In this document: in pieces, positions 7,122 to 18,713 of the stretch
How the letters are laid out: every line of letters starts with the position of its first letter
Numbering within the stretch: the stretch's first letter is position 1
From: an uncultured Acidobacteriaceae bacterium
GTDB taxonomy: Bacteria; Acidobacteriota; Terriglobia; Terriglobales; Acidobacteriaceae
Assembly: GCA_963782175.1 (NCBI GenBank)
Contig: CAWAIX010000010.1
Location: 154,399 to 218,398 of the forward strand
Direction of reading: 5' to 3'
Length of the DNA: 64,000 nt
Notes under the pieces: model-generated
The model's input: the letters and a program-made list of their open reading frames with translations, nothing else
Databases searched by the model: none
Told to the model about the DNA's origin: nothing
Translations under genes and position numbers: made by a program

Positions 7122-8255
7122 TTGCTTTACTGGCTCCTTTATCAGAAGCTCTTTCCCTACTTCAGACCATTCCGAATCTTCCGGTATCTGACGTTCCGCA
7201 CCGCATTTGCGACTCTCACGGCCCTTCTTATCGCGCTCCTCGTTGGCCCCTACGTCATTCAGAAGCTGCGTGAGTTCCAGATCGGCCAGTACATCCGCGA
7301 AGAGGGTCCCAAGGACCATCAGAAAAAAGCCGGAACCCCCACCATGGGCGGCGTCCTCATCTGCATCGCTATCCTTCTGCCTACGCTGCTCTGGTCCGAC
7401 CTGTCCAACCCCTTCGTATGGCTCGTCATGGGCTCGCTGGTCGCCTTCGGAGCCATCGGCTTCGCCGACGACTACATAAAAGTCATCCACCGCCGCAACC
7501 TGGGTCTCACCGCCCGCGCCAAGCTCGGCTACCAGGGTCTCGTTGCTTTCGGAATCGCAGTGGCCCTCGTCGCCATGCAAAGTCAGGGACTCTACTCGAC
7601 TCAGCTTTCCGTGCCCTTTATCAAGCGCTTCCATCCCCATCTCTCGCTGGGTCCGCTGACCCACATTCCACACATCGCCCTGCTGGCCTTTCTGCCGTTT
7701 GTGATCTTCGTCGTCCTGGTGATCGTCTTTTCGAGCAATGCCGTCAACCTCACCGACGGCCTCGACGGACTCGCCATCGGCTGCACCATCATTGCGGCGG
7801 GAGCGCTGACGGTCTTGACCTACGTGAGTGGCAACATCGTGCTCTCGGATTATCTGGAACTGCAGCGGATGTCGATGGTAGGTGAAGCGACCATCTTCTG
7901 CGGATCCATGGTCGGCGCCAGCATCGGATTCCTCTGGTACAACGCCCATCCCGCCGAGGTCTTCATGGGAGACGTCGGCTCGCTCGCCCTCGGCGGCGCC
8001 ATCGGCACCGTCGCCGTCGTCATCCGGCAGCAGCTGCTTTTGCCCTTCATCGGAGGCATCTTCGTCATCGAAGCCTTCTCCGTCATCCTGCAGGTCGGCA
8101 GCTACAAGCTGCGCAAGAAGCGCATCTTCAAAATGGCCCCGCTGCACCACCACTTCGAGCTGATGGGCTGGTCTGAATCGAAGGTCATCGTTCGCTTCTG
8201 GATCGCAGCCCTGGTGTTTGCGCTCTTGGCGCTCACCACCCTCAAGCTGCGCTAA
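7122..8255 (+). CDS. mraY: Phospho-N-acetylmuramoyl-pentapeptide transferase
   Basis: MLYWLLYQKLF...FRYLTFRTAF N-terminus, NAVNLTDGLDGLA, FMGDVGSLALGG, MAPLHHHFEL, and a C-terminal ...LTTLKLR like E. coli ...ATLKVR. TTG start after GGGAGGA. Confidence 0.93.
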   Translation: MLYWLLYQKLFPYFRPFRIFRYLTFRTAFATLTALLIALLVGPYVIQKLREFQIGQYIREEGPKDHQKKAGTPTMGGVLICIAILLPTLLWSDLSNPFVWLVMGSLVAFGAIGFADDYIKVIHRRNLGLTARAKLGYQGLVAFGIAVALVAMQSQGLYSTQLSVPFIKRFHPHLSLGPLTHIPHIALLAFLPFVIFVVLVIVFSSNAVNLTDGLDGLAIGCTIIAAGALTVLTYVSGNIVLSDYLELQRMSMVGEATIFCGSMVGASIGFLWYNAHPAEVFMGDVGSLALGGAIGTVAVVIRQQLLLPFIGGIFVIEAFSVILQVGSYKLRKKRIFKMAPLHHHFELMGWSESKVIVRFWIAALVFALLALTTLKLR

Positions 8256-8293
8256 ACACAATCCCCACCGCGCAACAATGACCCAGTCCGGCC
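8197..8293 (+). repeat. Copy A of the repeated mraY 3' end plus about 38 nt of downstream sequence (the copy currently in use)
   Basis: tggatcgcagccctggtgtttgcgctcttggcgctcaccaccctcaagctgcgctaa recurs at 9047-9105 and 10299-10354. The downstream acacaatccccaccgcgcaacaatgacc resembles 10355-10392. Confidence 0.85.
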
Positions 8294-8615
8294 TTGGAAT
8301 TGTGAGCCATATCATAAATGTGATATAGCTACGCACGAATGGGGTGGAGGACCCGCCGGGTGCCTCGTGCCTTGAGCGTGTCATAGGGTGGACAGCTCCT
8401 CTCGCACCAGCGAGACCCGGTGGAAGATTGGACCTCAGCCCCTGCGTCAGGAAGACAGGAGCTTCGGTTCTGGCAACGAATTGCCAGTTGAGTTGCATTA
8501 ACCCGATCCTCTCCAATTGTTTCGGGAGTTGCGAAAACCACTTCTCCCACAAAGCGTGGCCGGCGAATTCCCGGAACTGGCCGCTTCTCCTTACTAGACG
8601 ACAGGAGCAAACACG

Positions 8616-8801
8616 ATGCCAAACGAACCCGAAAGTCCCAAAACACCAGGGCCGGATGAGTCCAAAACTACGGATGCTGCAGAGAATGAGGAAATCGACC
8701 GCATCGCCGACGAAGCCGCGGGGAAAGCCTTGAGGACGGAAGACCGCTACGACCGGAACCGCACTACGTTCCCGAGGGGCGGACCTTCCGGAGTGGCATA
8801 A
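8616..8801 (+). CDS. Small acidic hypothetical protein (61 aa)
   Basis: ATG preceded by gacAGGAGcaaacacg at good spacing. No recognisable domain. Confidence 0.4.
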   Translation: MPNEPESPKTPGPDESKTTDAAENEEIDRIADEAAGKALRTEDRYDRNRTTFPRGGPSGVA

Positions 8802-8955
8802 GTCTCGCTTTTCCCTCGGCTCTCAGAGGCGCAGCCGGGCAAGATCTTGTGGGGTCCTTGGCGCGACGCCAAATGCGCTCGGATCTCCTTCCGTATTTCG
8901 GACGGGCGTAGATGACCGTGTTGAGTAATCCTCCCGCGCTGGGCGGCTGGGTGTA

Positions 8956-9025
8956 GTGTGCTATCCCAGCTCATATTGTCATCGTGATAAGTGTGCTATC
9001 CCAGCTCATATTGTCATCGTGATAA
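8956..9025. repeat. Perfect tandem duplication of a 35-bp unit
   Basis: gtgtgctatcccagctcatattgtcatcgtgataa occurs at 8956-8990 and again, identical, at 8991-9025. It lies about 20 nt upstream of mraY-end copy B. Confidence 0.95.
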
Positions 9026-9046
9026 ATGACGACGAGTCGCTTGGAT

Positions 9047-9105
9047 TATGGGTCGCAGCCCTGGTGTTTGCACTCTTAGCACTCACCACCCTCAAGCTGC
9101 GCTAG
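9047..9105 (+). repeat. Copy B of the mraY 3' end (orphan)
   Basis: Differs from copy A over the last 17 codons only at three synonymous third positions (gcg>gca, ttg>tta, gcg>gca) and in the stop codon (taa>tag). It still encodes AALVFALLALTTLKLR. Confidence 0.9.
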
Positions 9106-9421
9106 CGGTTGTCGCCCATTCGCGAAAGCATCCCAGTCTGTGTGTGAAGCAGAGCCGTCACCTTCGCGGTTTTTTCTCCGTGCTCGTGGCCTGCCTGTGC
9201 TTCTGCCCTTTAAACAGTTGATGTATTAGGCAAAATCTGAGATTCTGCACTTGAAGGAATGGTGCGGTTGTTTAGGACTCTACCCGAGCGCCACATTCAT
9301 CCTCCCGTGATCGTCCTCGTGGGCGCGATCTCTCCTACGCAGTGGGGCGCGGTACTCTCATCGCTGCGGTGTGCGCAAAATGCAATACGTAAGTAAGTAG
9401 AGGTAAGCAAAACTCTCCAAA

Positions 9422-9445
9422 GGCTGGCACGAAGCCAGCTTTTTC
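9422..9445 (+). terminator. Intrinsic terminator-like hairpin 1
   Basis: gctggc-acgaa-gccagc stem-loop followed by ttttt. Confidence 0.5.
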
Positions 9446-9453
9446 CGTTATCT

Positions 9454-9476
9454 GAGCCGCGTCATGCGGCTCTTTT
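9454..9476 (+). terminator. Intrinsic terminator-like hairpin 2
   Basis: gagccgc-gtcat-gcggctc stem-loop followed by tttt. Confidence 0.5.
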
Positions 9477-9878
9477 CATTTGAACCCAGAAAAATCTCTA
9501 AGATGGAACATTTCCTTTTGGAAATATTCAGAATCGTGGCGGAGTACATCCTTGGCCCCTTGGCCACTGTATGGCTGACCACGAAGCTGAATAACAAGCC
9601 CAAAGCTTAGAAGCTCAGCCAGCCAATTCCCGGACAAACTCCCTAAAAATTGCGTCGGATTGAACTGGGGATTCCGGCCCCAGGGGAGAGCTGCGCCTTT
9701 TTGCCGATTCCGCACGGTGCGGGATTTTCGCCTTTGCCTTTCGCCTTTGCGCTGTGCGCAGGCCCGGATCTCCGAGCGCGTCCGCAGCCCTCGACCTGGC
9801 TCCGTCCTCCCATTCGCCAGCCACCTGAATCGCTCACCAGGCCCCTGGGGCAGTACACTTGCGAGTGAGGGTTTAGCC

Positions 9879-10253
9879 ATGAGCGGCGAAGACGTATTGC
9901 TTCGATGCAGCGAGTGCGGGCAGGAATTTCCGTTTACCGCGACGGAACAGCAGTTCTTTCGGGAGCGTGGTTATACTCCGCCCAAGCGCTGCAAGTCATG
10001 CCGCCAGGCCAAGCAGGCCGCGGGTTCGTATGGTCAGCAGGATAGTGGACGCCCGGCAGGCTACAGCTCTGGTGGGGGTGTCGAAACAACGGTCGTTTGT
10101 GCTAGCTGCGGACAAACCACCACTGTTCCTTTTGAGCCGCGCGGAGATCGGCCGGTTTACTGTAAGAACTGCTACAAGCCGAAGCAGGGCGGACGAGGTC
10201 GTGGCGGTAGCAGCGGAGGAGGAAATCGTGGCCAGGATCGCCGCCGCTACTGA
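9879..10253 (+). CDS. Double zinc-ribbon protein (zf-trcl-like plus CxxC-x17-CxxC domain) with a Gly/Arg-rich tail
   Basis: CSECGQEFPFTATEQQFFRERGYTPPKRCKSC, then CASCGQTTTVPFEPRGDRPVYCKNC (exact CxxC-x17-CxxC spacing). ATG 9879 follows gtGAGGGtttagcc. The upstream part of ORF 9660-10253 looks non-coding. Confidence 0.7.
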   Translation: MSGEDVLLRCSECGQEFPFTATEQQFFRERGYTPPKRCKSCRQAKQAAGSYGQQDSGRPAGYSSGGGVETTVVCASCGQTTTVPFEPRGDRPVYCKNCYKPKQGGRGRGGSSGGGNRGQDRRRY

Positions 10254-10298
10254 TCTTCTTTGACAAGCCGGTTTTCCGAAGCCGAATGCTCAAATGCT

Positions 10299-10392
10299 TG
10301 GATCGCCCCCTGGTGTTTGCACTCTTTGCACTCACCACCCTCAAGCGGCGATAAACGCAAGCCTCAGCGTGCAACAATGACCTGTTCGGCAG
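10299..10392 (+). repeat. Copy C of the mraY 3' end plus downstream spacer (diverged, carries a 1-nt deletion)
   Basis: ttggatcgccccctggtgtttgcactctttgcactcaccaccctcaagcggcgataa followed by acgcaagcctcagcgtgcaacaatgacc. Both align with 8197-8293. Confidence 0.8.
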
Positions 10393-10454
10393 CCGGCCGG
10401 GGACAGCAGAAGTGTGCCCGAATTCCCACGATGCGCGGTCAGCCTCTAAACTCG

Positions 10455-10469
10455 TGAGCATGGAACTCA
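10455..10469 (+). repeat. Left copy of the 15-nt direct repeat bounding the island (attL-like core); a duplicate of the murD start region
   Basis: tgagcATGGAACTCA here versus tgaacATGGAACTCA at 18699-18713 (14/15 identical). An abrupt AT-rich stretch follows immediately. Confidence 0.7.
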
Positions 10470-10507
10470 TCATAACTTTCTTATTATCAGTTATTTAATT
10501 AATATTA

Positions 10508-10530
10508 AACTGTCAGCAAGATGTCAGCAA
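10508..10530 (+). repeat. Candidate integrase arm-type site, left end
   Basis: aactgtcagcaagatgtcagcaa lies about 40 nt inside the left core. It resembles aactgtcaacaagctgtcaaac, which lies about 35 nt inside the right core. Confidence 0.4.
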
Positions 10531-10836
10531 TGCCGCTTTCAAAATTTTGTGGCTAGAGAAGTTTTTCTAGATCGCGGTCCCCAGCGGGGCGTTCGATCTG
10601 GTTTTTGAACCACCCCTCGGGTTGCCTATGGATCGGTCGGCTTCCTGCATCCGGTTAGCAGGTCGGCATTAGGGCCTAGGTCTCAAGAGAGGGCATCAAG
10701 GAATCCATACTGGAAGTGCTGGAAAGTCTGGCATGCGCATTGGGCTGATCTAAAATGCTGACGGGGTACAACGGTTTTGGACTTTTGGGTGATTTGCACA
10801 CCTCTCATCCCTGTGAGCGCGTCTGGCGTGAGCTAC

Positions 10837-11052
10837 ATGATCAACATCTTTCCTAGGGAGTATCACGGACCTATCCCGGTACGGCGCTATCTTCACCCGA
10901 GCGAATTCAAGGTCGCCTTGGCAACCTTGGGATTCAACGCGCATTCCGTTGAGGTGATCTTTGACGAGATGCAACTTGGAAAGAGCCACGCTGAAGGCCC
11001 CGTTCCGCTGTCGGAGGAGGTCGCAGATAAATTCGGTTGGCCGAACGGCTGA
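10837..11052 (+). CDS. Hypothetical small protein (island cargo)
   Basis: ORF 10777-11052. The ATG at 10837 gives MINIFPREYHGPIPVRRYLHPSEFKVALATLGF.... Composition looks protein-like, but there is no recognisable domain. Confidence 0.3.
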   Translation: MINIFPREYHGPIPVRRYLHPSEFKVALATLGFNAHSVEVIFDEMQLGKSHAEGPVPLSEEVADKFGWPNG

Positions 11053-11148
11053 CCATAAGCGACGCCTTCGGAAACTCGCACCACTTGCGCGTGAAGAGCA
11101 GCGAAGATGCGGAAAGCGATATGCTTACTGTCACTCAATTTCAGCAAC

Positions 11149-12265
11149 TAGTGACCTGTCGCAGAGTAAACATTACTAGTCCTGCTTACATCTAAGCAGG
11201 TATGTCCATCGATTCGGTGGTGCTCAGCGAAGACCAGCAACTGGAACTCAGCCGTAGTGCCCAGTCCCGCTCTCTGCCCGCCGGATATGTCTTCCGCGCC
11301 AGGCTGATTCTGATGCTGGCCGAGGGAGCGTCGTTCAATACGATCAAGCAGAGGTTGCGGACCACAGCGCCGACGATCAGCCGGTGGAAGCGGCGCTTCC
11401 TTGCTTCGGGTATGGATGGCCTGGATACGAGTCATCCCGGACAGTCCGCTTCCGTGCTGACTCCTAAGCTGCGAGCCCGGATTCTCTCGACTACCCGCAA
11501 GAAGCCGAGGGACGGTTCCACTCACTGGAGTTGTCGCAAGCTTGCCGCAGCGCTGGGCGTCAGCAAGGACGCAGTGCATCGGGTGTGGAAAGAGGCCGGC
11601 CTGAAGCCGCACCGCCTGGAGCGCTACATGGCCAGCGACGATCCGGATTTCGAAGCCAAAGCCGCTGACATTATCGGGCTGTACCTGAACCCTCCGCAGC
11701 ATGCTGCCGTGTTCTGTGTTGATGAGAAGACTGCCATTCAGGCACTGGATCGGCTCGATCCGGTGCTGCCGCTTTCGCCGGGCCGCGCCGAGCGCCACGG
11801 ATTTGAATACTACCGGCACGGAACCCTCTCGCTGTATGCGGCGCTGGACACCGCGACCGGCCGCGTTCACGGCAAGACCGCCGCTCGCCACACCAGTCGG
11901 GACTTTGTCGGTTTCCTGAAGGAGGTTGTCTCCCTGTGCCCGCCCAATCAGCAGATCCACATCATCCTCGACAATCTCTCGGCTCACAAAACCGCGCTGG
12001 TGCGGGAGTTCCTGGAGCAACATCCCCGCGTCCGGTTCCACTTCACACCCACCTACTCCTCATGGCTCAATCAGGTCGAACTCTGGTTCGCGAAAATCGA
12101 GCGGGAGGTCATCGCCCGCGGCGTCTTTACCTCCGTGCCCGATCTGGCCCGCAAACTGCGCCGCTACATCAACGCTTACTCAGCCAATGCTCAGCCTATC
12201 AACTGGAAGTACTCCGACCCTTCTCACCGCATCCGCAGTAACGATCTCTCTGCGACAGGCCACTA
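11149..12265 (+). mobile_element. IS630-family insertion sequence with flanking TA duplication
   Basis: Terminal inverted repeats: gtgacctgtcgcagag (11151-11166) versus the reverse complement of 12248-12263, gtggcctgtcgcagag (15/16). TA on both sides (11149-11150, 12264-12265). Single DDE transposase ORF. Confidence 0.88.
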
Positions 12266-12266
12266 G
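11202..12266 (+). CDS. IS630-family DDE transposase
   Basis: 354 aa. N-terminal HTH (LMLAEGASFNTIKQRLRTTAPTISRWKRRF), then CVDEKTAIQAL, HIILDNLSAHKT and TPTYSSWLNQVELWFAKIERE. Confidence 0.9.
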   Translation: MSIDSVVLSEDQQLELSRSAQSRSLPAGYVFRARLILMLAEGASFNTIKQRLRTTAPTISRWKRRFLASGMDGLDTSHPGQSASVLTPKLRARILSTTRKKPRDGSTHWSCRKLAAALGVSKDAVHRVWKEAGLKPHRLERYMASDDPDFEAKAADIIGLYLNPPQHAAVFCVDEKTAIQALDRLDPVLPLSPGRAERHGFEYYRHGTLSLYAALDTATGRVHGKTAARHTSRDFVGFLKEVVSLCPPNQQIHIILDNLSAHKTALVREFLEQHPRVRFHFTPTYSSWLNQVELWFAKIEREVIARGVFTSVPDLARKLRRYINAYSANAQPINWKYSDPSHRIRSNDLSATGH

Positions 12267-12509
12267 TCTTCTGTACGGCATGGATGTGGCCCCTTGGCAC
12301 TCTGCTCAGTCATCAAGAGTCGCAACCAAAGAGCGTCGAAGGCGCATTGCTTTTCGGTGGTGCTTGGATATTTTGCGGTATCAGGCTTTATGTCAAAAAG
12401 AAGTGGCCGTTCAACAGGCCGCAATAGGGGCCATGGCTGGGCTTCGCGATGGGGTCCGGGTGTCGTGGTCCAAGGGTTGTTACCGACGTGGATACAGGGC
12501 AGAGAGGAT

Positions 12510-12538
12510 TTGACATGTCCAAGCATCGGGAGTATAAT
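12510..12538 (+). promoter_or_regulatory. Consensus sigma-70-type promoter (TTGACA-17 nt-TATAAT)
   Basis: ttgaca at 12510-12515, a 17-nt spacer, tataat at 12533-12538. It points into the 3' end of the minus-strand Rep-like gene (antisense). Confidence 0.4.
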
Positions 12539-12731
12539 GCCTCTCTCCCAGAGTGCCACGTTGCACCAGAATGCCCGTAGATCGCGTCAGGATGCCCTAC
12601 AAGCAATTTTTTCGACTCAGGTGAGGGGAATGCGTCACCCGAGATGCATCGACGCCTTAAATCGGGTCGCCACCGCACAGTATGCGGTTGATCCAATAGC
12701 GAAGGCTGGATCGGTGCCCGTGGGGAGGTGT

Positions 12732-13492
12732 TCAGGCCCGGAGGTGGAGAGGGCCGAAGAATCGCGTCACGCCTTTGAGTGAATCAATGCGGCGGATGAA
12801 CTCGTCAGGATCGGCAAGGAGAGCGCGGTAGTTTCTAGTGATGTTGCTCGGAGTCGCCCACTTCGTGCAGTACCGGACCAGTCCAGCAAGATCATCTTCA
12901 GTGACGCCAGCTTGGACGGCTACGATGCTGGCGTGCTTCTTTGGCTTGGTAGGTTGCCTTCTCTTAAGCGGCACCGTCATGTCACGCCTTCGAGCCAGCG
13001 GACAGGCGGCCTCCCACATGAGAATCCAGTCAGGTTCCGAGATGCGGTAGCGTCCCTTGTCTAAGGGCTTCGTGATTACGAGGCTGTGAACATGGGCGCA
13101 CGGCTTAACTCGTCCATGCTTCAGGGCCACTTCGAGCACAGAGAAGTGAGCGACCACGCGAGAACGAAGTCGCTCATGCTTGAGCAGGTTCCGCATTCCC
13201 CTCACAGCAGCCTTAGCGTGAGTGTTTACCTCGTCGCTGTCTTCAGCAGCGCCAGTGAGAAACCACAACTGGTAGCTGGGATGGCTTCGGAGGAGAGCAG
13301 GGAGAACTTGTTCAAGGTGTTCCGCTGCTTGTAGACCTTACGGCTCGTGCACTTTATGCAGTACGCATTGTGGCAATGTTTGTGACCGTAGCAGTCCCTG
13401 ATACGGATACTGTCGCGGATCAGCTTACGCTTCGAAAGGTGACGAACAATGTCAGCGGAGAGACGATCAATCGAGGTGAGGGCTACGGACAC
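12732..13492 (-). pseudogene. Rolling-circle replication initiator-like gene (Rep_1/pUB110-type architecture), split into two frames
   Basis: ORF 13226-13492 carries a Cys-rich CHNAYCIKCTSRKVYKQR. ORF 12732-13268 carries WFLTG, SVLEVAL, an HUH-like PCAHVHSLVI, ISEPDWILMWEAA and VRYCTKW (Tyr motif). The order matches RCR Rep motifs, but the two ORFs are in different frames. Confidence 0.5.
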
Positions 13493-13738
13493 GCTACTGA
13501 GAGGACCCCTTCAAGAGAACCAGAAAGAAGACAAACGAATTTACAAGGATAAAAGAGCACGCGGGGTGTGAACAGCCCCGTAAACACGGGGTTGTTAACA
13601 AAGACGGGTGGACTTCAGGCTTGGTAAGCAAGTCTTATGTCTTAACAAGGTGACACACCGACCCCCTCCCCAAGTTAATGGGTGTAAGGGCAGGATAGCA
13701 CGGCACAGGGAAATGTCAAGAGGCTCGGGCCAAAAAGG

Positions 13739-14812
13739 CTAAGGTCCGGGACGAACCGACGTTGGCGGGCGGTCGTCCTGCTTGAGACTGCTGAGCACCC
13801 GGTCGAAGGCTTTCTGGTACTGGCCATGATCTTTCCAGTTGCTGAAATCGGGAATGAAATACTCCCGGATTTCTCGAGCCGAATCCTTCCCAGTATCCGC
13901 ATCGGGCAACTTCCATTGCTGTATCAGTGAAAAGGCCACCAGACTGATCGGGAAGAGCACTTGGCGGTGTTCATTGACCTCCTTCTGACGTGCGTGGGCG
14001 ATTTCCGTCTCAACCCAGGCACTCTTCATGCTTGCTTCAGAGAGAATCAGCAGAAGCCGGTCGTAGACTCGTATTGCCTCGTCAAGCTGATCATGAATCT
14101 TTCTTCCTGCTTGGATATGGTGTGGGGCAAACCAGCAGCGCACGCCGTTATGTTGCAGATCAGCATAAAGGCGGTCAGCAAAATCCTGATCTACTGTCGA
14201 ATAGCTGATGAAGCACGAATAGAACTGGATCGGCTGATTCGAAAGTGACGGCAAGTAAGTAATGAGCGTCTCGGGGACGCCGCAGCCCCGCAGAAAGTTC
14301 AGCGGCAGTTGGCCAAAGCGAGTTAGTGTGCGGTAGTCGAGCGGGCTTGGCCCCTTATGAGTGCAAGCGTCTAAACCCAATGTCTCTGTCAGGTCTACAT
14401 TGGCAAAGACAGTTTCATCAAGGATCGCCCCACTGAGGTTTGCCCCACTGAGGTCCGCCGCATTCAAGTTCGCCCCACTGAGGTCCGCCCCACTGAGGTC
14501 CGCCGCAAGAAGAACTGCGACACTGAGGTCCGCCCCTTGGAGGTCCGCCCGGCTGAAGTTCACCCTACTGAGGCTCGCCGCGACTAGGTTTGCCCCACGG
14601 AGGTCCGCCCCACGGAGGTCCGCCCCTTGGAGGTCCGCCCCACTGAGGTCCGCCCCTTGGAGGTCCGCCCCACGGAGGTCCTTCGCACCGAGGTCCGCTC
14701 GACTGAGGTCCGCTTCACGGAGGTCCAGTGCAGTTGTCGAATCGCTTGCCCGCCATTGGTTCCACGCCATCACCCCTTGCCGGATGCGCTCCAAGTGTTC
14801 CGAGTTCGACAT
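13739..14812 (-). CDS. Pentapeptide-repeat / TIR-domain fusion protein
   Basis: About 20 consecutive A(D/N)LxG pentapeptide repeats, then a TIR domain: YSCFISYSTVDQDFADRLYADLQHNGVRCWF...RLLLILSEASMKSAWVETEIAHA (SxWxxxE glutamate present). Start taken at MSNSEHLERI (14812); the ORF extends to 14977. Confidence 0.85.
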   Translation of the reverse strand: MSNSEHLERIRQGVMAWNQWRASDSTTALDLREADLSRADLGAKDLRGADLQGADLSGADLQGADLRGADLRGANLVAASLSRVNFSRADLQGADLSVAVLLAADLSGADLSGANLNAADLSGANLSGAILDETVFANVDLTETLGLDACTHKGPSPLDYRTLTRFGQLPLNFLRGCGVPETLITYLPSLSNQPIQFYSCFISYSTVDQDFADRLYADLQHNGVRCWFAPHHIQAGRKIHDQLDEAIRVYDRLLLILSEASMKSAWVETEIAHARQKEVNEHRQVLFPISLVAFSLIQQWKLPDADTGKDSAREIREYFIPDFSNWKDHGQYQKAFDRVLSSLKQDDRPPTSVRPGP

Positions 14813-15007
14813 GCAAGCCAAGATACGCGGCGGAAGACATAGCGGAAAAGAATTAAGAGAACGAATCGACTTCAACTTGTCGCTTTCGGTTTGGTAGCTT
14901 TCCCTCTGTATCAAAAAAGGGTGCCCGTCGCGACACGAATTGGCGTGGATTTGAGACTCACATTTCGGGTGTTGCAAATAACGACCGTTTTATGATACTT
15001 TCTACAC

Positions 15008-15601
15008 ATGAGAACAGCGATCTACGCCAGAGTATCCACGAAGGACGGTCGGCAGGACACCGAAAACCAATTGCGGCAACTTCGGGACTTCGCAGCTACT
15101 CAAGGCTGGACCGTGGTTCACGAGTACGTAGATCGCGCCAGCGGAAAGCGTGGTGACCGTGAGCAATTCCAGAGGATGTTCGGAGCGGCATCCCGGCGGG
15201 AGTTCGATGTGCTGCTCTTCTGGAGCCTTGACCGCCTCAGCCGTGAGGGCACCGTAGAGACGCTTAACCACCTGCAACGGCTCACGGGCTACGGCGTGAA
15301 CTACAGATCGTTCACTGAGCAATATCTCGACAGCACGGGGATGTTTAAGGAGGCAGTCATCGGCATCCTCGCGGCGGTGGCAAAGCAAGAGCGCGTGCGG
15401 CTGAGTGAGCGTACGATCGCAGGTCTACAGCGTGCTAAGGCTCAAGGTAGAGTTGGCGGTCGCCCGAAAACCGAAGACAACTCGACGGTCGTAAAGGCTC
15501 TTCGGCAGTTGCGGCGAGAGGGTAGGAGCATCCGCGCAATCGCGGCTCAGTTGAAGCTGAGCACCGGCACGGTGCAAAAGCTAGTAAAACAGGCAGTCTG
15601 A
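15008..15601 (+). CDS. Serine recombinase (resolvase/invertase family)
   Basis: MRTAIYARVSTKDGRQDTENQ (catalytic Ser context), LLFWSLDRLSREG, and C-terminal GRVGGRPK plus an HTH. Confidence 0.9.
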   Translation: MRTAIYARVSTKDGRQDTENQLRQLRDFAATQGWTVVHEYVDRASGKRGDREQFQRMFGAASRREFDVLLFWSLDRLSREGTVETLNHLQRLTGYGVNYRSFTEQYLDSTGMFKEAVIGILAAVAKQERVRLSERTIAGLQRAKAQGRVGGRPKTEDNSTVVKALRQLRREGRSIRAIAAQLKLSTGTVQKLVKQAV

Positions 15602-15618
15602 GGGACGGATTCGGACAG

Positions 15619-16500
15619 ATGCCCCAAATCTCCCAACGCACCGTCGCTCTGATGATCCCTCTTTACGGGGCGCTTGGCTGTTTTGATCCCACATATCGAA
15701 ACTTGAGGAGCGGAATGGTCCCGCTCGTGACGGCCAGCCAACTGAAGAATCGACTGTATGCGCAAGGTTTCGACACTGCGATTTTGGGCTTCTTTCAGCA
15801 GCAGTCGTGGAAGTTTGACAGGATTCTGCCTTCGCTCCTCGACGGGTCATTCATCACTTCCGCCGATTGGTCAACCTCTTGGGAACGCACGGGACCTCAG
15901 TACGTACTTGGTCTGGCGGAGGCACTCTTGGGGATTTCCCGGCAACCTGAGATACCTCACTCTCCCCTTTTCGATGATCTGTTGAGGGAGTTTGAACGTG
16001 ATGGTTATGTTCTCAGCGGTGGGAGACTGGTTGAAGCCGACACATCGATAGTGGATGTTCCTGCCGAGGTCTCATTGCTTCGCGCCTCCATCGATAGAAG
16101 TCGCCATGACAATAAGTCGGTGCTCACGCATCACTTCGATACGGCGGCCCAACAGCTGGAGGATGAGCACTGGGGTCCAACTATGGGTGAATGGCGGAAG
16201 TTCTTCGAGGAAGTTCTGCGCGGCGTCTGGCGGTTCACCCGTCAGAAGAATCGTGACGCAGCAGCGAAGATTGAGAGACCTGGAATGGCTGATCTCTTCA
16301 AATGGTTGCAGGAGGTCGGATTTTTTACGGCGGATGAAGCCACGGCATATGGCGCGGTCTATGGATTTTTATCTGGGGGTAATCACCCAGGTATCAGGGA
16401 TAGAGATTCAGCACGATTTTGTATGATACTCGCGATGACGTTCGGGCACTCTTGCCTTCTGAAACTGGAGTCCTGGACAGGAACGGACTACTCAATATGA
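15619..16500 (+). CDS. Hypothetical protein (293 aa), co-oriented with and 17 nt after the resolvase gene
   Basis: Long ORF with protein-like composition. I recognise no domain. Start codon uncertain. Confidence 0.5.
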   Translation: MPQISQRTVALMIPLYGALGCFDPTYRNLRSGMVPLVTASQLKNRLYAQGFDTAILGFFQQQSWKFDRILPSLLDGSFITSADWSTSWERTGPQYVLGLAEALLGISRQPEIPHSPLFDDLLREFERDGYVLSGGRLVEADTSIVDVPAEVSLLRASIDRSRHDNKSVLTHHFDTAAQQLEDEHWGPTMGEWRKFFEEVLRGVWRFTRQKNRDAAAKIERPGMADLFKWLQEVGFFTADEATAYGAVYGFLSGGNHPGIRDRDSARFCMILAMTFGHSCLLKLESWTGTDYSI

Positions 16501-16763
16501 CCACTGCCAAGGAACTCATTGATGCCTGCGAAATACGAAATAAGGGATGGAGGTACCGCGAACAGTTTTGGCTGGCTGAGATCGGACTCCTTCGGGATGT
16601 AGTTGGGTAGCCGCAATTCCTCCGCAGTAAAGGTGCAAGCGGTCCCGGGGGTCAGACGAACAATACTTCCGGCCCACTCGTCGCTGCATGTACCTGCTGT
16701 CGCCGCTGGAAACCGCAGGGTCTCCGAAGGGTCAGCAAAACTGACCACGGGGAAGCCTCCGAT

Positions 16764-17420
16764 TCAATGCAATTGCGGCACTCGAATGGACTCCCAAACC
16801 GCAAAAGAAACAAAGGATTTCGGAGCGTCAGCGGCGGAAAAGTGTGTCTCCGTTCGTTGCAGTGTTATCCGTCGCGATCCACAAGTGTTGCTCAACTCAA
16901 GTTTGCTCCTACCAGTCCCTCGCTGTTCAGTATTTCCCGAATCACGAGTGATGTTGAAGGCGGGATGGCTGCAACCGCATAGAAACGTCACTGCCGTCAC
17001 AGACGATGTGCTCGGGGCGTGAGGTCTGTACTCCGAACTAGTAGCGAGCACGCAAAGGGTATGGCTCTCCGCTTCCAGTGCTTTTGCCCTCGCGTAGAAG
17101 GCGTCAAAGACCGCGGTGGATGAGTTGCTATCGCCCTCAACCCATTGTCGATCTATTTGGCTCACAACGTGACCTCTCGTCGAGATCGAGCCGAGCCAGA
17201 CTGGAGGATTCTTCTGCCAAACGTCCCAGTCCACCTGATCACTCGCGGCGGTATCCGCGTCCTTGCTTACGTCGAAATCCCGGCTCAGTGCGGCCAGCAG
17301 AGCATCCGAGGGCATACCGAGGGTCACCGTGTGGTCCCCGAAGGTGGTGGAAGCGGTTTGCGAGGAACATTTCACGCCACAGGTAGCAAGACAAAGAATG
17401 GTGATGACGAGAACTTTCAA
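16764..17420 (-). CDS. Putative secreted protein or lipoprotein, hypothetical
   Basis: N-terminal KVLVITILCLATCGVKCSS signal/lipobox-like sequence. TTG start overlaps the integrase stop (TTGA). The C-terminal third looks low in information and could be frame-damaged. Confidence 0.45.
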   Translation of the reverse strand: MKVLVITILCLATCGVKCSSQTASTTFGDHTVTLGMPSDALLAALSRDFDVSKDADTAASDQVDWDVWQKNPPVWLGSISTRGHVVSQIDRQWVEGDSNSSTAVFDAFYARAKALEAESHTLCVLATSSEYRPHAPSTSSVTAVTFLCGCSHPAFNITRDSGNTEQRGTGRSKLELSNTCGSRRITLQRTETHFSAADAPKSFVSFAVWESIRVPQLH

Positions 17421-18613
17421 GGTCTCTCCTGCCAGCCGCTGGTGAAGACCCGATTGACGAGGGCCCGCTGAGCGTCACCGTGGATGGCTTCGGCGTACAA
17501 CTGGGTAACGCTGATCGATGAGTGTCCGGCCATGACGGACGCGGTTTTGATGTCCACTCTAGCCCTGAGCAACGTAGTCACGAACTTTTTGCGCAGCATG
17601 TGGAGACCGAATTCCTTGGGGTCGAGTCCCGCCTTGGTCGCCTCGGCTTTGATTCGCTTGAGTAGACTATGGTGCGGCTTCCCAGTGCGTGTTTCGAGGA
17701 TTAGTCGGCTGTGTGGATGGTAGGCTCGCCACTGGTGGAGGTGATTGAGTAGGCCGTCATTTATGGCGATGTGACGCTCGGTGCGTGTTTTGATTGTGAA
17801 ATCCAAGTCTGGCTTCTCGGTGACGGTGAACTGCCCGGCTGTCCAGTCGATATCTGACCACGCTGCGTACATGAGTTCCCTTTTGCGGAGTCCCAATTCG
17901 GCGAGCATGCGGACGGCTGTGTATAGGATCGGGCTGCACGTGGTGAGTAGTTTGTCGAGTTGCTCGTCGCTGCATACCCGGGGCTTCAAACGCGGGATGG
18001 TAGGTGCGTCCGGCAGGTTGGGAATGGTGACTCCGGCCCACTTGAGGAATGTTTTCAGAATCACGTAGCGATTGCGGATGGTGCGGTCTTTGAGACCACT
18101 GGATCGCAGGTGAGTAAACCAGTCAAGAATGTCCTGCCGGGTGATTGTTGGCCACGCTGCCCACGATTTGAAGAGATACTGCGCTTGTCTCTCCATCTCG
18201 AACTTGTGTTGTTGGCGGAGGTCCATCAAGAAGGCCGTAGACGCCTCTCTGAGCGTCCGGTAGGTCGGAGAGGATGCCTGAGTCGCCTGAAGGTCCGCGA
18301 GGCGCTTGGCGAGGCGTTTCTGTGCGGCGTGGACGGTGTTGGTTATCATGTCCTGCATGATGTTGGGCGCGACGATGACGCCAGACGGCGGAGTGAGGTT
18401 CAAGGGTTCGAATCGGCGCTTGCCGTGGTGCCAGTATTTGAGGAAGTATCTGCCGCCCGGGTAGTGACACTCTTGACCCTTATCGCGAACGTAGGCGCGG
18501 CCTTCGCGTATTCTGGGTGACATGAACTCACGCCAGCCGCGAGGGGTCTTGACACGGTACACGAGCGGGAGCGTTTGCTTGCCGGGTGGTTTGGGCTGCG
18601 TCGATGTGGTCAT
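17417..18613 (-). CDS. Tyrosine recombinase / phage-type integrase
   Basis: 398 aa. C-terminal catalytic region LGLRKRELMY..., HMLRKKFVTTLL and AGHSSISVTQLYAE (R...HxxR...GH...Y). Confidence 0.9.
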   Translation of the reverse strand: MTTSTQPKPPGKQTLPLVYRVKTPRGWREFMSPRIREGRAYVRDKGQECHYPGGRYFLKYWHHGKRRFEPLNLTPPSGVIVAPNIMQDMITNTVHAAQKRLAKRLADLQATQASSPTYRTLREASTAFLMDLRQQHKFEMERQAQYLFKSWAAWPTITRQDILDWFTHLRSSGLKDRTIRNRYVILKTFLKWAGVTIPNLPDAPTIPRLKPRVCSDEQLDKLLTTCSPILYTAVRMLAELGLRKRELMYAAWSDIDWTAGQFTVTEKPDLDFTIKTRTERHIAINDGLLNHLHQWRAYHPHSRLILETRTGKPHHSLLKRIKAEATKAGLDPKEFGLHMLRKKFVTTLLRARVDIKTASVMAGHSSISVTQLYAEAIHGDAQRALVNRVFTSGWQERP

Positions 18614-18642
18614 TGGCGGGGATGGTAGGACGGGCGTCGAGC

Positions 18643-18664
18643 AACTGTCAACAAGCTGTCAAAC
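18643..18664 (+). repeat. Candidate integrase arm-type site, right end
   Basis: aactgtcaacaagctgtcaaac lies between the integrase start and the right core repeat. Same orientation as 10508-10530. Confidence 0.4.
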
Positions 18665-18698
18665 GGAGCTGTAAGCGACAGAAAACAAGTGGACGTTT

Positions 18699-18713
18699 TG
18701 AACATGGAACTCA
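18699..18713 (+). repeat. Right copy of the 15-nt direct repeat (attR-like core), containing the functional murD ATG
   Basis: tgaacATGGAACTCA. The ATG at 18704 opens MELKGKKVLVVGLGKSG. Confidence 0.7.

Follow-up and report, generated by a model that had tools for sequence, protein, structure and literature searches.

A small integrative element in the genome of an uncultured Acidobacteriaceae bacterium raises the question of what a protein that joins a long row of pentapeptide repeats to a TIR domain does in the cell that carries it. The gene, named here PRP-TIR for its two parts (pentapeptide-repeat protein and TIR), is located in a stretch of 64,000 nucleotides (contig CAWAIX010000010.1 of assembly GCA_963782175.1, positions 154,399 to 218,398 of the forward strand), which is referred to below as the window. 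A preliminary description of this DNA, made from the sequence alone, had presented the fusion as a candidate single-protein defence system, and had suggested that a resolvase gene and an open reading frame (ORF) of 293 residues, ORF293, could belong to the same module. The reading that we favour is that PRP-TIR is a stand-alone sensor-TIR enzyme from a large uncharacterised family with a role in immunity or conflict; taken as a whole, we hold this reading with confidence and doubt in equal parts.

Architecture of PRP-TIR and its putative catalytic glutamate

The gene encodes a 357-aa protein in which, as had been described, pentapeptide repeats are joined to a C-terminal TIR domain; in Pfam the protein matched Pentapeptide (PF00805; E 2.9e-46, 155 bits against a cut-off of 20.2), TIR_2 (PF13676, residues 201-292; E 6.1e-21, 75.6 bits against a cut-off of 28) and TIR (PF01582; 36.5 bits against a cut-off of 21.3). 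In an alignment of 41 sequences, the N-terminus read from the ATG at 14812, MSNSEHLERIRQGVMAWNQWR, matches the family start MANPEHL..GVxxWNxWR, which indicates that this codon is the true start; judged against its own family, the gene appears to be intact and of full length. A 412-aa frame that reaches upstream to 14977 was ruled out, given that the extension has no counterpart in the homologues and that the family methionine is the one at 14812.

The repeat register reveals about 23 pentapeptides without interruption at residues 30-145, against the 20 or so of the preliminary description. This region has the features of the pentapeptide repeat family, i.e. tandem A(D/N)LXX units and a right-handed beta-helix. 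In an AlphaFold2 model built from the family alignment (mean predicted local distance difference test score, pLDDT, 86.7), a short helical N-cap is followed by the beta-helix, a linker of three short helices and the TIR domain; the pLDDT per 10-residue block is 96-99 over most of the beta-helix. Foldseek against PDB matched this part with the pentapeptide solenoids synthetic beta1, HetL, Np275/276, Qnr and MfpA, and the last four were also found by phmmer. In agreement with the structure that had been proposed, the model confidently predicts a beta-helix followed by a TIR fold. The repeat domain is acidic (isoelectric point 4.05, net charge about -12); a role as a DNA mimic would be pure conjecture, many other pentapeptide proteins being acidic too.

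In the linker, residues P170, F173, R175, G176 and G178 are invariant in the 41-sequence alignment, and among wider relatives each is still the commonest residue at its position (88-99%). The nearest relative (P0001) is 87% identical to the window protein over the linker and the TIR domain; the part N-terminal to the shared motif TVFANVDLT comprises 219 residues in P0001 versus 133 here, i.e. 86 more. From this comparison, the variable part of the family appears to be the repeat number, which differs sharply between close relatives.

The TIR domain scores above the gathering threshold and has in the model the flavodoxin-like TIR fold, of which the apparent C-terminal tail beyond the Pfam match is predicted to form the beta-E/alpha-E part. 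The FISYS and SAWVETEI blocks noticed before are present at 200-205 (as CFISYS) and at 264-271. Among solved TIRs, those nearest in sequence are AbTir and another, related TIR from bacteria (7uwg, 8g83, 7uxr; E ~2e-6); by structure, the best Foldseek match of the TIR part in PDB is the SPARTA TIR-APAZ protein 8oz6_A, with a root-mean-square deviation of 3.3 Å over 156 columns. Glu270 pairs with the Glu of WTNYEL in the AbTir chains 7uwg/8g83, deposited as 'NAD(+) hydrolase AbTIR', a residue known as the catalytic one. The correspondence with the catalytic Glu of NAD-cleaving TIRs that had been pointed out is borne out by this pairing and by the presence of Glu at position 270 in 271 of 272 aligned relatives; S199, F201, S203, W227, G236, S264, W266 and the LFP motif are each kept in at least 96% of these relatives. 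Bacterial TIRs with this Glu are NAD+ hydrolases or cyclases activated by self-association, as in AbTir, ThsB, SPARTA and TIR-SAVED. With the Glu of its alpha-C W-x-x-x-E aligned with that of known NADases, the TIR domain of the 357-aa protein is apparently NAD-cleaving and catalytically competent.

Family size, domain fusions and gene neighbourhoods

The architecture had been taken for an unusual one; instead, the searches indicate that it is abundant. In a word-indexed protein search with the 357-aa query, 7,999 matches were obtained among 8,000 candidates, and the best 120 of these matches, which come mostly from soil metagenomes, are nearly all full-length PRP-TIR proteins (47-75% identity, 85-100% query cover). 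A full HMMER scan of 1.84 billion cluster representatives (clusters at 50% identity) with the linker and TIR domain (residues 151-357) returned 1,443 proteins at E <= 1e-30 and 5,045 at E <= 1e-10. In the GTDB contigs, with one genome per species, relatives are encoded at a minimum of 519 loci, the majority in Acidobacteriota, in metagenome-assembled genomes of Terriglobia, Bryobacterales and Solibacteraceae, with isolated cases labelled Chloroflexota, Planctomycetaceae, Verrucomicrobiia, Nitrospirota, Methylobacter, Beta- and Deltaproteobacteria. The database names of the family members are generic, i.e. 'TIR domain-containing protein' or 'YjbI with pentapeptide repeats'.

Proteins with a TIR of the same subfamily (60-69% identity) carry other domains as well, namely TPR, TPR plus pentapeptide repeats, a Ser/Thr kinase or two GAF domains; further fusions combine pentapeptide repeats with a C-terminal LuxR-type helix-turn-helix (HTH), or carry N-termini of no recognised family. 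Proteins P0131, P0159, P0191, P0243 and P0247 show how the sensor or output domain is exchanged while the TIR stays constant. Two PRP-TIR genes in tandem occur at 5 of 80 loci, the upstream copy being the more divergent one (35-61% TIR identity); these pairs are at 730-3539 in L022 and around 8800-11250 in L031, L039, L048 and L061, with a spacing of 7-69 nt. At L022, a resolvase gene whose product is 57% identical to that of the window lies directly upstream of the pair.

Possible partner genes were analyzed by all-against-all clustering of 1,471 ORFs from 80 genomic PRP-TIR loci, up to 10 kb on each side; the neighbour ORFs were longest-ORF picks that may include some spurious antisense ORFs, which would dilute family matches and are not expected to create them. 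The most frequent neighbour family was present at no more than 9 of the 80 loci, from local synteny. Because no neighbour family recurs beyond this number, PRP-TIR is a stand-alone gene without a conserved partner, as the preliminary description had supposed of the protein. Among the seven island proteins scanned, PADLOC gave no confident match to a known defence partner.

Relatives were also encountered on mobile DNA. In 5 of the 6 IMG/VR contigs that carry one, PRP-TIR has a gene for a terminase, major head protein, tape-measure protein, integrase or primase at a distance of about 1.5-5 kb. In L095 (502-6611), the relative is about 1.5-3 kb from the major head and large terminase genes; in L099 (1200-10466), it is placed between an integrase gene and terminase-like and primase genes, an arrangement that resembles a prophage or a phage satellite. 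On plasmid pSR-5 of Skermanella rosea (L101, NZ_CP086116.1, 31077-34833), two IS256 copies split a PRP-TIR gene into a 'pentapeptide repeat' and a 'TIR domain' coding sequence, with another pentapeptide protein and a recombinase nearby.

Known TIR systems and the possible roles of PRP-TIR

The PADLOC and NCBIfam matches of PRP-TIR to named TIR defence systems concern the TIR part alone, and a pentapeptide-TIR fusion is never mentioned in the searchable literature, in accordance with the earlier remark that the architecture is not known among these systems. In that literature, pentapeptide repeats and TIR domains appear only as separate building blocks of conflict systems; it also describes an ion-channel protein with pentapeptide repeats from a Hailong-like defence system, and an anti-defence protein of phage that has such repeats.

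PRP-TIR shares with the AbTir/BtTir-type NAD+ hydrolases (7uwg, 8g83, 7uxr) the beta-A FISxS, the BB-loop Gly and the W-x-x-x-E, all of which align; however, the aligned stretch of ~90 residues is only ~30% identical, and these proteins carry a coiled-coil N-terminus and not a pentapeptide beta-helix. Products of the AbTir/BtTir type are isomers of cyclic ADP-ribose (cADPR). The likeness to Thoeris ThsB is that the TIR protein would be both the sensing and the enzymatic part, and that some loci of both hold several tandem TIR genes; weak matches to ThsB models were obtained (PF08937, 21.4 bits against a cut-off of 21.2; PADLOC ThsB, E 4.5e-6). In contrast with Thoeris, where a ThsB-type TIR stands beside a ThsA effector, no ThsA-type effector (SIR2, Macro, SLOG) was found among the seven island proteins and no neighbour is conserved in the 80 loci; therefore, PRP-TIR is not classed as Thoeris. 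The working principle of SPARTA, the TIR-SAVED of CBASS and TIR-STING, in which TIR assembly and NAD+ depletion are governed by a sensor part, would be similar, and the best PADLOC match of PRP-TIR is the SAVED_TIR effector (profile positions 13-102, TIR part only). In contrast to them, the sensor of PRP-TIR would be a pentapeptide beta-helix on the same chain, without an Argonaute, SAVED, STING or cyclase partner; in the seven island proteins, Pfam and PADLOC gave no cyclase match that would point to CBASS TIR-SAVED or Pycsar PycTIR. PDC-S66, a single-gene TIR system of PADLOC that is itself only a candidate, is matched in its TIR region (E 1.4e-12, profile positions 146-240 of 282), but its N-terminal 145 positions are unmatched and there is no full-length match.

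Regarding the repeats, the right-handed quadrilateral beta-helix and the acidic surface are common to Qnr, MfpA, AlbG, HetL and Np275/276; in sequence and fold, the matches are strong to HetL and Np275/276 and weaker to Qnr and MfpA. Qnr, MfpA and AlbG are DNA-mimicking gyrase protectors; we know of no gyrase link for PRP-TIR, which unlike the Qnr/MfpA type has a C-terminal enzymatic domain in place of a dimerisation helix, and whose NCBIfam scores are low for Qnr (40.9 versus 240 bits) and MfpA (41 versus 360), and far below the cut-off for HetL. From these comparisons we conclude that PRP-TIR represents the sensor-TIR theme with an undescribed sensor, in a family that databases already hold in large numbers under unspecific names.

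By analogy with AbTir, ThsB, SPARTA and TIR-SAVED, NADase activity, the nature of the trigger, oligomerisation and an anti-phage phenotype may be inferred for PRP-TIR, and a mechanism can be outlined. The acidic pentapeptide beta-helix would be the ligand-binding sensor; its ligand would most likely be a protein, perhaps one that binds DNA and belongs to an invading element. Binding would, via the conserved linker, bring about the self-association of TIR domains into a composite active site in which Glu270 would cleave NAD+, with growth arrest or death of the infected cell as the result. The outcome would be abortive infection or exclusion in which no separate effector protein is required: there is no effector partner, and this part would fall to the TIR itself. 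A more ambitious version, that PRP-TIR is a widespread unnamed single-protein immune system of soil bacteria, chiefly Acidobacteriota, whose helix baits phage or plasmid DNA-binding proteins into triggering TIR assembly and NAD+ depletion, and in which changes of repeat number tune specificity, seems to us unlikely. If PRP-TIR proteins are immune sensors, a DNA-like beta-helix would join the sensor-TIR theme as a new sensor type, and the family would be an opening into the poorly known defence repertoire of Acidobacteriota, a phylum that ranks among the most abundant in soil.

The evidence on a role in conflict or defence points both ways. Variation of the repeat number, re-use of the TIR in fusions, tandem paralogues, little synteny and occurrence in several phyla are traits of conflict genes, and copies are found on two integrase islands, a plasmid and phage-like contigs. 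A set of observations weighs on the other side. The 290 neighbour ORFs within 4 kb at 39 homologue loci, a sample without matched background, are heterogeneous according to Pfam and mostly housekeeping (TonB-dependent receptors, BamA-like proteins, SmpB, purine synthesis, transporters). In the same sample the PADLOC matches were scattered (PDC-M71A/B, mads, MTase_II, DrmD, PDC-S35, PDC-M41B, PDC-M30B, AriA), generic (kinases and radical-SAM proteins) or due to additional TIR or PRP-TIR paralogues. The enrichment near known defence genes that the preliminary description had looked to is thereby at best a weak signal; the neighbourhood does not look like that of a defence-island gene, with the proviso that PADLOC may cover Acidobacteriota poorly. 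None of the INPHARED phage records carries a relative of the TIR, and only 6 of 2.9 million IMG/VR contigs do. In addition, GAF, kinase and LuxR-type HTH fusion partners are also typical of ordinary signal transduction, and the searchable literature contains no biochemical or phenotypic datum for any PRP-TIR member.

A physiological alternative is one in which the repeats sense a cellular cue or partner and the TIR, by a nucleotide signal or by lowering NAD+, regulates dormancy, stress or development in Acidobacteriota. Fusion of the same TIR to GAF, Ser/Thr kinase, TPR and LuxR-type HTH, the mostly housekeeping chromosomal neighbours, a response regulator or PAS histidine kinase directly downstream at two of the three Pfam-annotated chromosomal loci, and the very strong conservation of the TIR sequence across the family are in its favour; nevertheless, poor synteny, tandem paralogues, rapid change of the repeat number, the copies on islands, plasmid and phage-like contigs, and the lack of a conserved downstream receiver gene in the 80 loci are difficult to accommodate, and we see this alternative as possible and on balance doubtful. 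If it were correct, PRP-TIR proteins would be NAD-signalling enzymes that form an unexplored regulatory layer in these bacteria. It is improbable that PRP-TIR acts in selfish stabilisation or competition, as a TIR NADase that harms cells losing or lacking the element or is delivered to competitors or eukaryotic grazers: the cargo position on small integrative elements beside recombinases would suit such a toxin, and there is a weak sub-threshold similarity of the repeats to the type III effectors PipB/PipB2, but the NCBIfam score for PipB is 62.7 bits versus a cut-off of 274, no antitoxin-like neighbour is conserved in the 80 loci, and most homologues lie outside recognisable mobile elements. 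A signal peptide or secretion-system gene was likewise not noticed on the island, where no formal screen for either was made.

Many animal TIR domains are adaptors and pentapeptide proteins often have no known activity, precedents for PRP-TIR as a non-enzymatic scaffold in which the TIR serves protein-protein assembly alone and the repeats are a structural rod; the near-invariant Glu and SxW motif are nonetheless hard to explain without catalysis, and the closest solved relatives by sequence are NAD+ hydrolases, so that we rate a scaffold as quite improbable. Finally, the three-gene module, in which PRP-TIR would work with the divergent serine recombinase and with ORF293 as partner or immunity factor, draws on the physical proximity of the genes in the window and on the presence of a resolvase gene also in the vicinity of L005 and L022, the closest two of the PRP-TIR relatives examined; however, order and orientation vary in each case, and such recurrence is as expected for small mobile elements. 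BLAST of the island proteins found relatives of the resolvase at 2 of the 80 PRP-TIR loci (57% and 34% identity) and of the IS630 transposase at 1, and none of the integrase, ORF293 or ORF218 at any. ORF293 homologues are found in unrelated contexts where these are readable, and the unknown genes adjacent to PRP-TIR at L005 are unrelated to ORF293; as a unit, the three genes are contradicted by the comparative context and barely credible. The favoured reading, an immune or conflict sensor-TIR enzyme, and the physiological one share a clean test in the putative catalytic Glu, and the family is large and testable.

The island, its other genes and its integration site

The preliminary description had placed PRP-TIR on a horizontally acquired island, which is in agreement with the direct repeats, the tyrosine integrase gene, the GC content (56.3% versus 60.9% in the rest of the window) and the empty-site alignment. 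The direct repeat is imperfect and 15 nt long, TGA(G/A)CATGGAACTCA. When 10308-10469 is joined to 18714 onward, the reconstructed junction is colinear with uninterrupted mraY-murD loci (e.g. L110, L102); because joining across the repeats recreates the uninterrupted junction of relatives, the island is taken as 8,244 bp, 10470-18713. It thus shows the marks of an integrative element: direct repeats flank it, an integrase gene lies beside one of its ends, and relatives have the site unoccupied. PRP-TIR is cargo of a small integrative element sited exactly at the start codon of murD. The window is in this respect a tidy case of a small integrative element landing on the start codon of an essential cell-wall gene. 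The features of the island are collected in Table 1.

Table 1. Features of PRP-TIR and of the island that carries it (positions in the window)
Feature	Position	Strand	Evidence or remark
PRP-TIR gene	13739..14812	-	357-aa ORF; Pfam Pentapeptide and TIR_2; end-to-end alignment with 40 homologues
Pentapeptide-repeat beta-helix, residues 25-150	14363..14740	-	~23 repeats; register and charge; model; Foldseek/phmmer
Helical linker / C-cap, residues 151-195	14228..14362	-	GPSxLDxRTL..LPLxFLRGCGxPxxLIxYLPSL
TIR domain, residues 196-345	13778..14227	-	Pfam, alignment with AbTir, AlphaFold2, Foldseek
Glu270 codon, GAA	14003..14005	-	S264-x-W266-x-x-x-E270; putative catalytic Glu
Small serine recombinase, resolvase/invertase type	15008..15601	+	PF00239, E 2.9e-35, 121.9 bits
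ORF293, 293 aa, all-helical	15619..16500	+	Eight homologues; start supported by alignment
ORF218, 218 aa, hydrophobic N-terminus	16764..17420	-	4-nt overlap with integrase stop
Tyrosine integrase, adjoins right repeat	17417..18613	-	Phage_integrase E 5.5e-21; NCBIfam XerA-like E 6.9e-28, below cut-off
IS630-family insertion sequence inside island	11147..12267	+	354-aa DDE_3 transposase; 31-nt inverted ends, 84% complementarity
Rolling-circle Rep-like gene, frameshift-split	12732..13492	-	Weak Rep_1 match, E 0.0023; three-frame translation
Left direct repeat, att-like, TGAGCATGGAACTCA	10455..10469	.	Repeat search; empty-site reconstruction
Right direct repeat, TGAACATGGAACTCA	18699..18713	.	Contains murD ATG (18704)
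Expected excised-circle junction of island			GGACGTTTTGARCATGGAACTCATCATAACTTTC
Empty-site sequence of island			CTAAACTCGTGAGCATGGAACTCAAAGGG

The Rep-like gene consists of a Cys/His-rich N-terminal ORF followed by the motifs FLTGA, HVHSLVI (HUH) and YCTK; because of this split gene, the island may derive from, or may formerly have replicated as, a small plasmid-like element. Assemblies of four metagenome samples also contain the island on contigs of its own, either ~8.9 kb long or, in two cases, shorter and partial; ORF218, which has no family match in Pfam, PADLOC or NCBIfam, is also called in these copies. No tRNA that could be the integration target is present within the window, an exact-match search for the empty site gave nothing in JGI metagenomes, and a scan for promoters and terminators gave counts at or below shuffle expectation. 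The nearest PRP-TIR relative (75% identity) is on another island with integrase and resolvase genes and with different, unrelated unknown genes.

The spacing reported before is exact: 195 bp separate PRP-TIR from the resolvase gene on the opposite strand, and 17 nt lie between the latter and ORF293. The resolvase is a small serine recombinase, with a Resolvase domain that contains the catalytic-Ser motif YARVST and with C-terminal HTH matches at residues 159-196. Inversion of a promoter by this enzyme was considered and set aside: the inverted repeats around the gene pair are weak (15-19 nt, 79-87%) and the metagenome copies are colinear. ORF293, as had been stated, has no recognisable domain in Pfam, NCBIfam or PADLOC; in Pfam, its eight family members gave nothing consistent at E up to 5. 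With eight homologues in 5.8 billion proteins, it appears to be a real but tiny family. In the readable contexts, the contigs of these homologues carry HAD hydrolase, glycosyltransferase, tannase-like and CCG Fe-S genes, and no TIR or resolvase genes beside them. Unknown genes near other PRP-TIR genes (335 aa and 363 aa at L005, 312 aa at L006) were considered as kin of ORF293 and discarded, because they are related neither to it nor among themselves. The C-terminal half of the ORF293 model (AlphaFold2, pLDDT 83.3) had repeated non-significant Foldseek matches to the HEPN toxins 7bxo, 6m6w, 8yuf and 2hsb (E 0.4-2, probability up to 0.95), and no canonical Rx4-6H motif was seen in its sequence; with such matches and no motif, no function was assigned.

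In the window, mraY ends at 8255 and murD starts at 18704, i.e. 10.4 kb are inserted into a conserved junction of the dcw cluster. Comparison junctions were retrieved from metagenomes with a degenerate murD-start pattern (24 loci); mraY and murD are adjacent in 18 of these relatives. Because a few relatives (L106, L107, L112, L119, L108) also hold inserts or a stray copy of the mraY 3'-end, the mraY-murD junction looks like a recurrent integration site. To the left of the island, 8284-10307 is older inserted DNA bounded by further mraY 3'-end copies: the last ~46 nt of mraY are present three times (8209-8283, 9059-9133 and 10308-10382), copies 1 and 3 also share ~29 nt past the stop codon, and over 75 nt the copies are 72-87% identical to copy 1 and bound ~2.1 kb of older insert or inserts. 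Such copies would be the expected pattern for elements that enter the mraY 3' end and bring their own copy of it. Within the older insert, the 35-bp unit AGTGTGCTATCCCAGCTCATATTGTCATCGTGATA is perfectly duplicated in tandem at 8955-9024, and the plus strand at 9880-10253 encodes a small protein that combines two treble-clef zinc-finger domains (PF13451, PF23477) with a tail rich in Gly and Arg.

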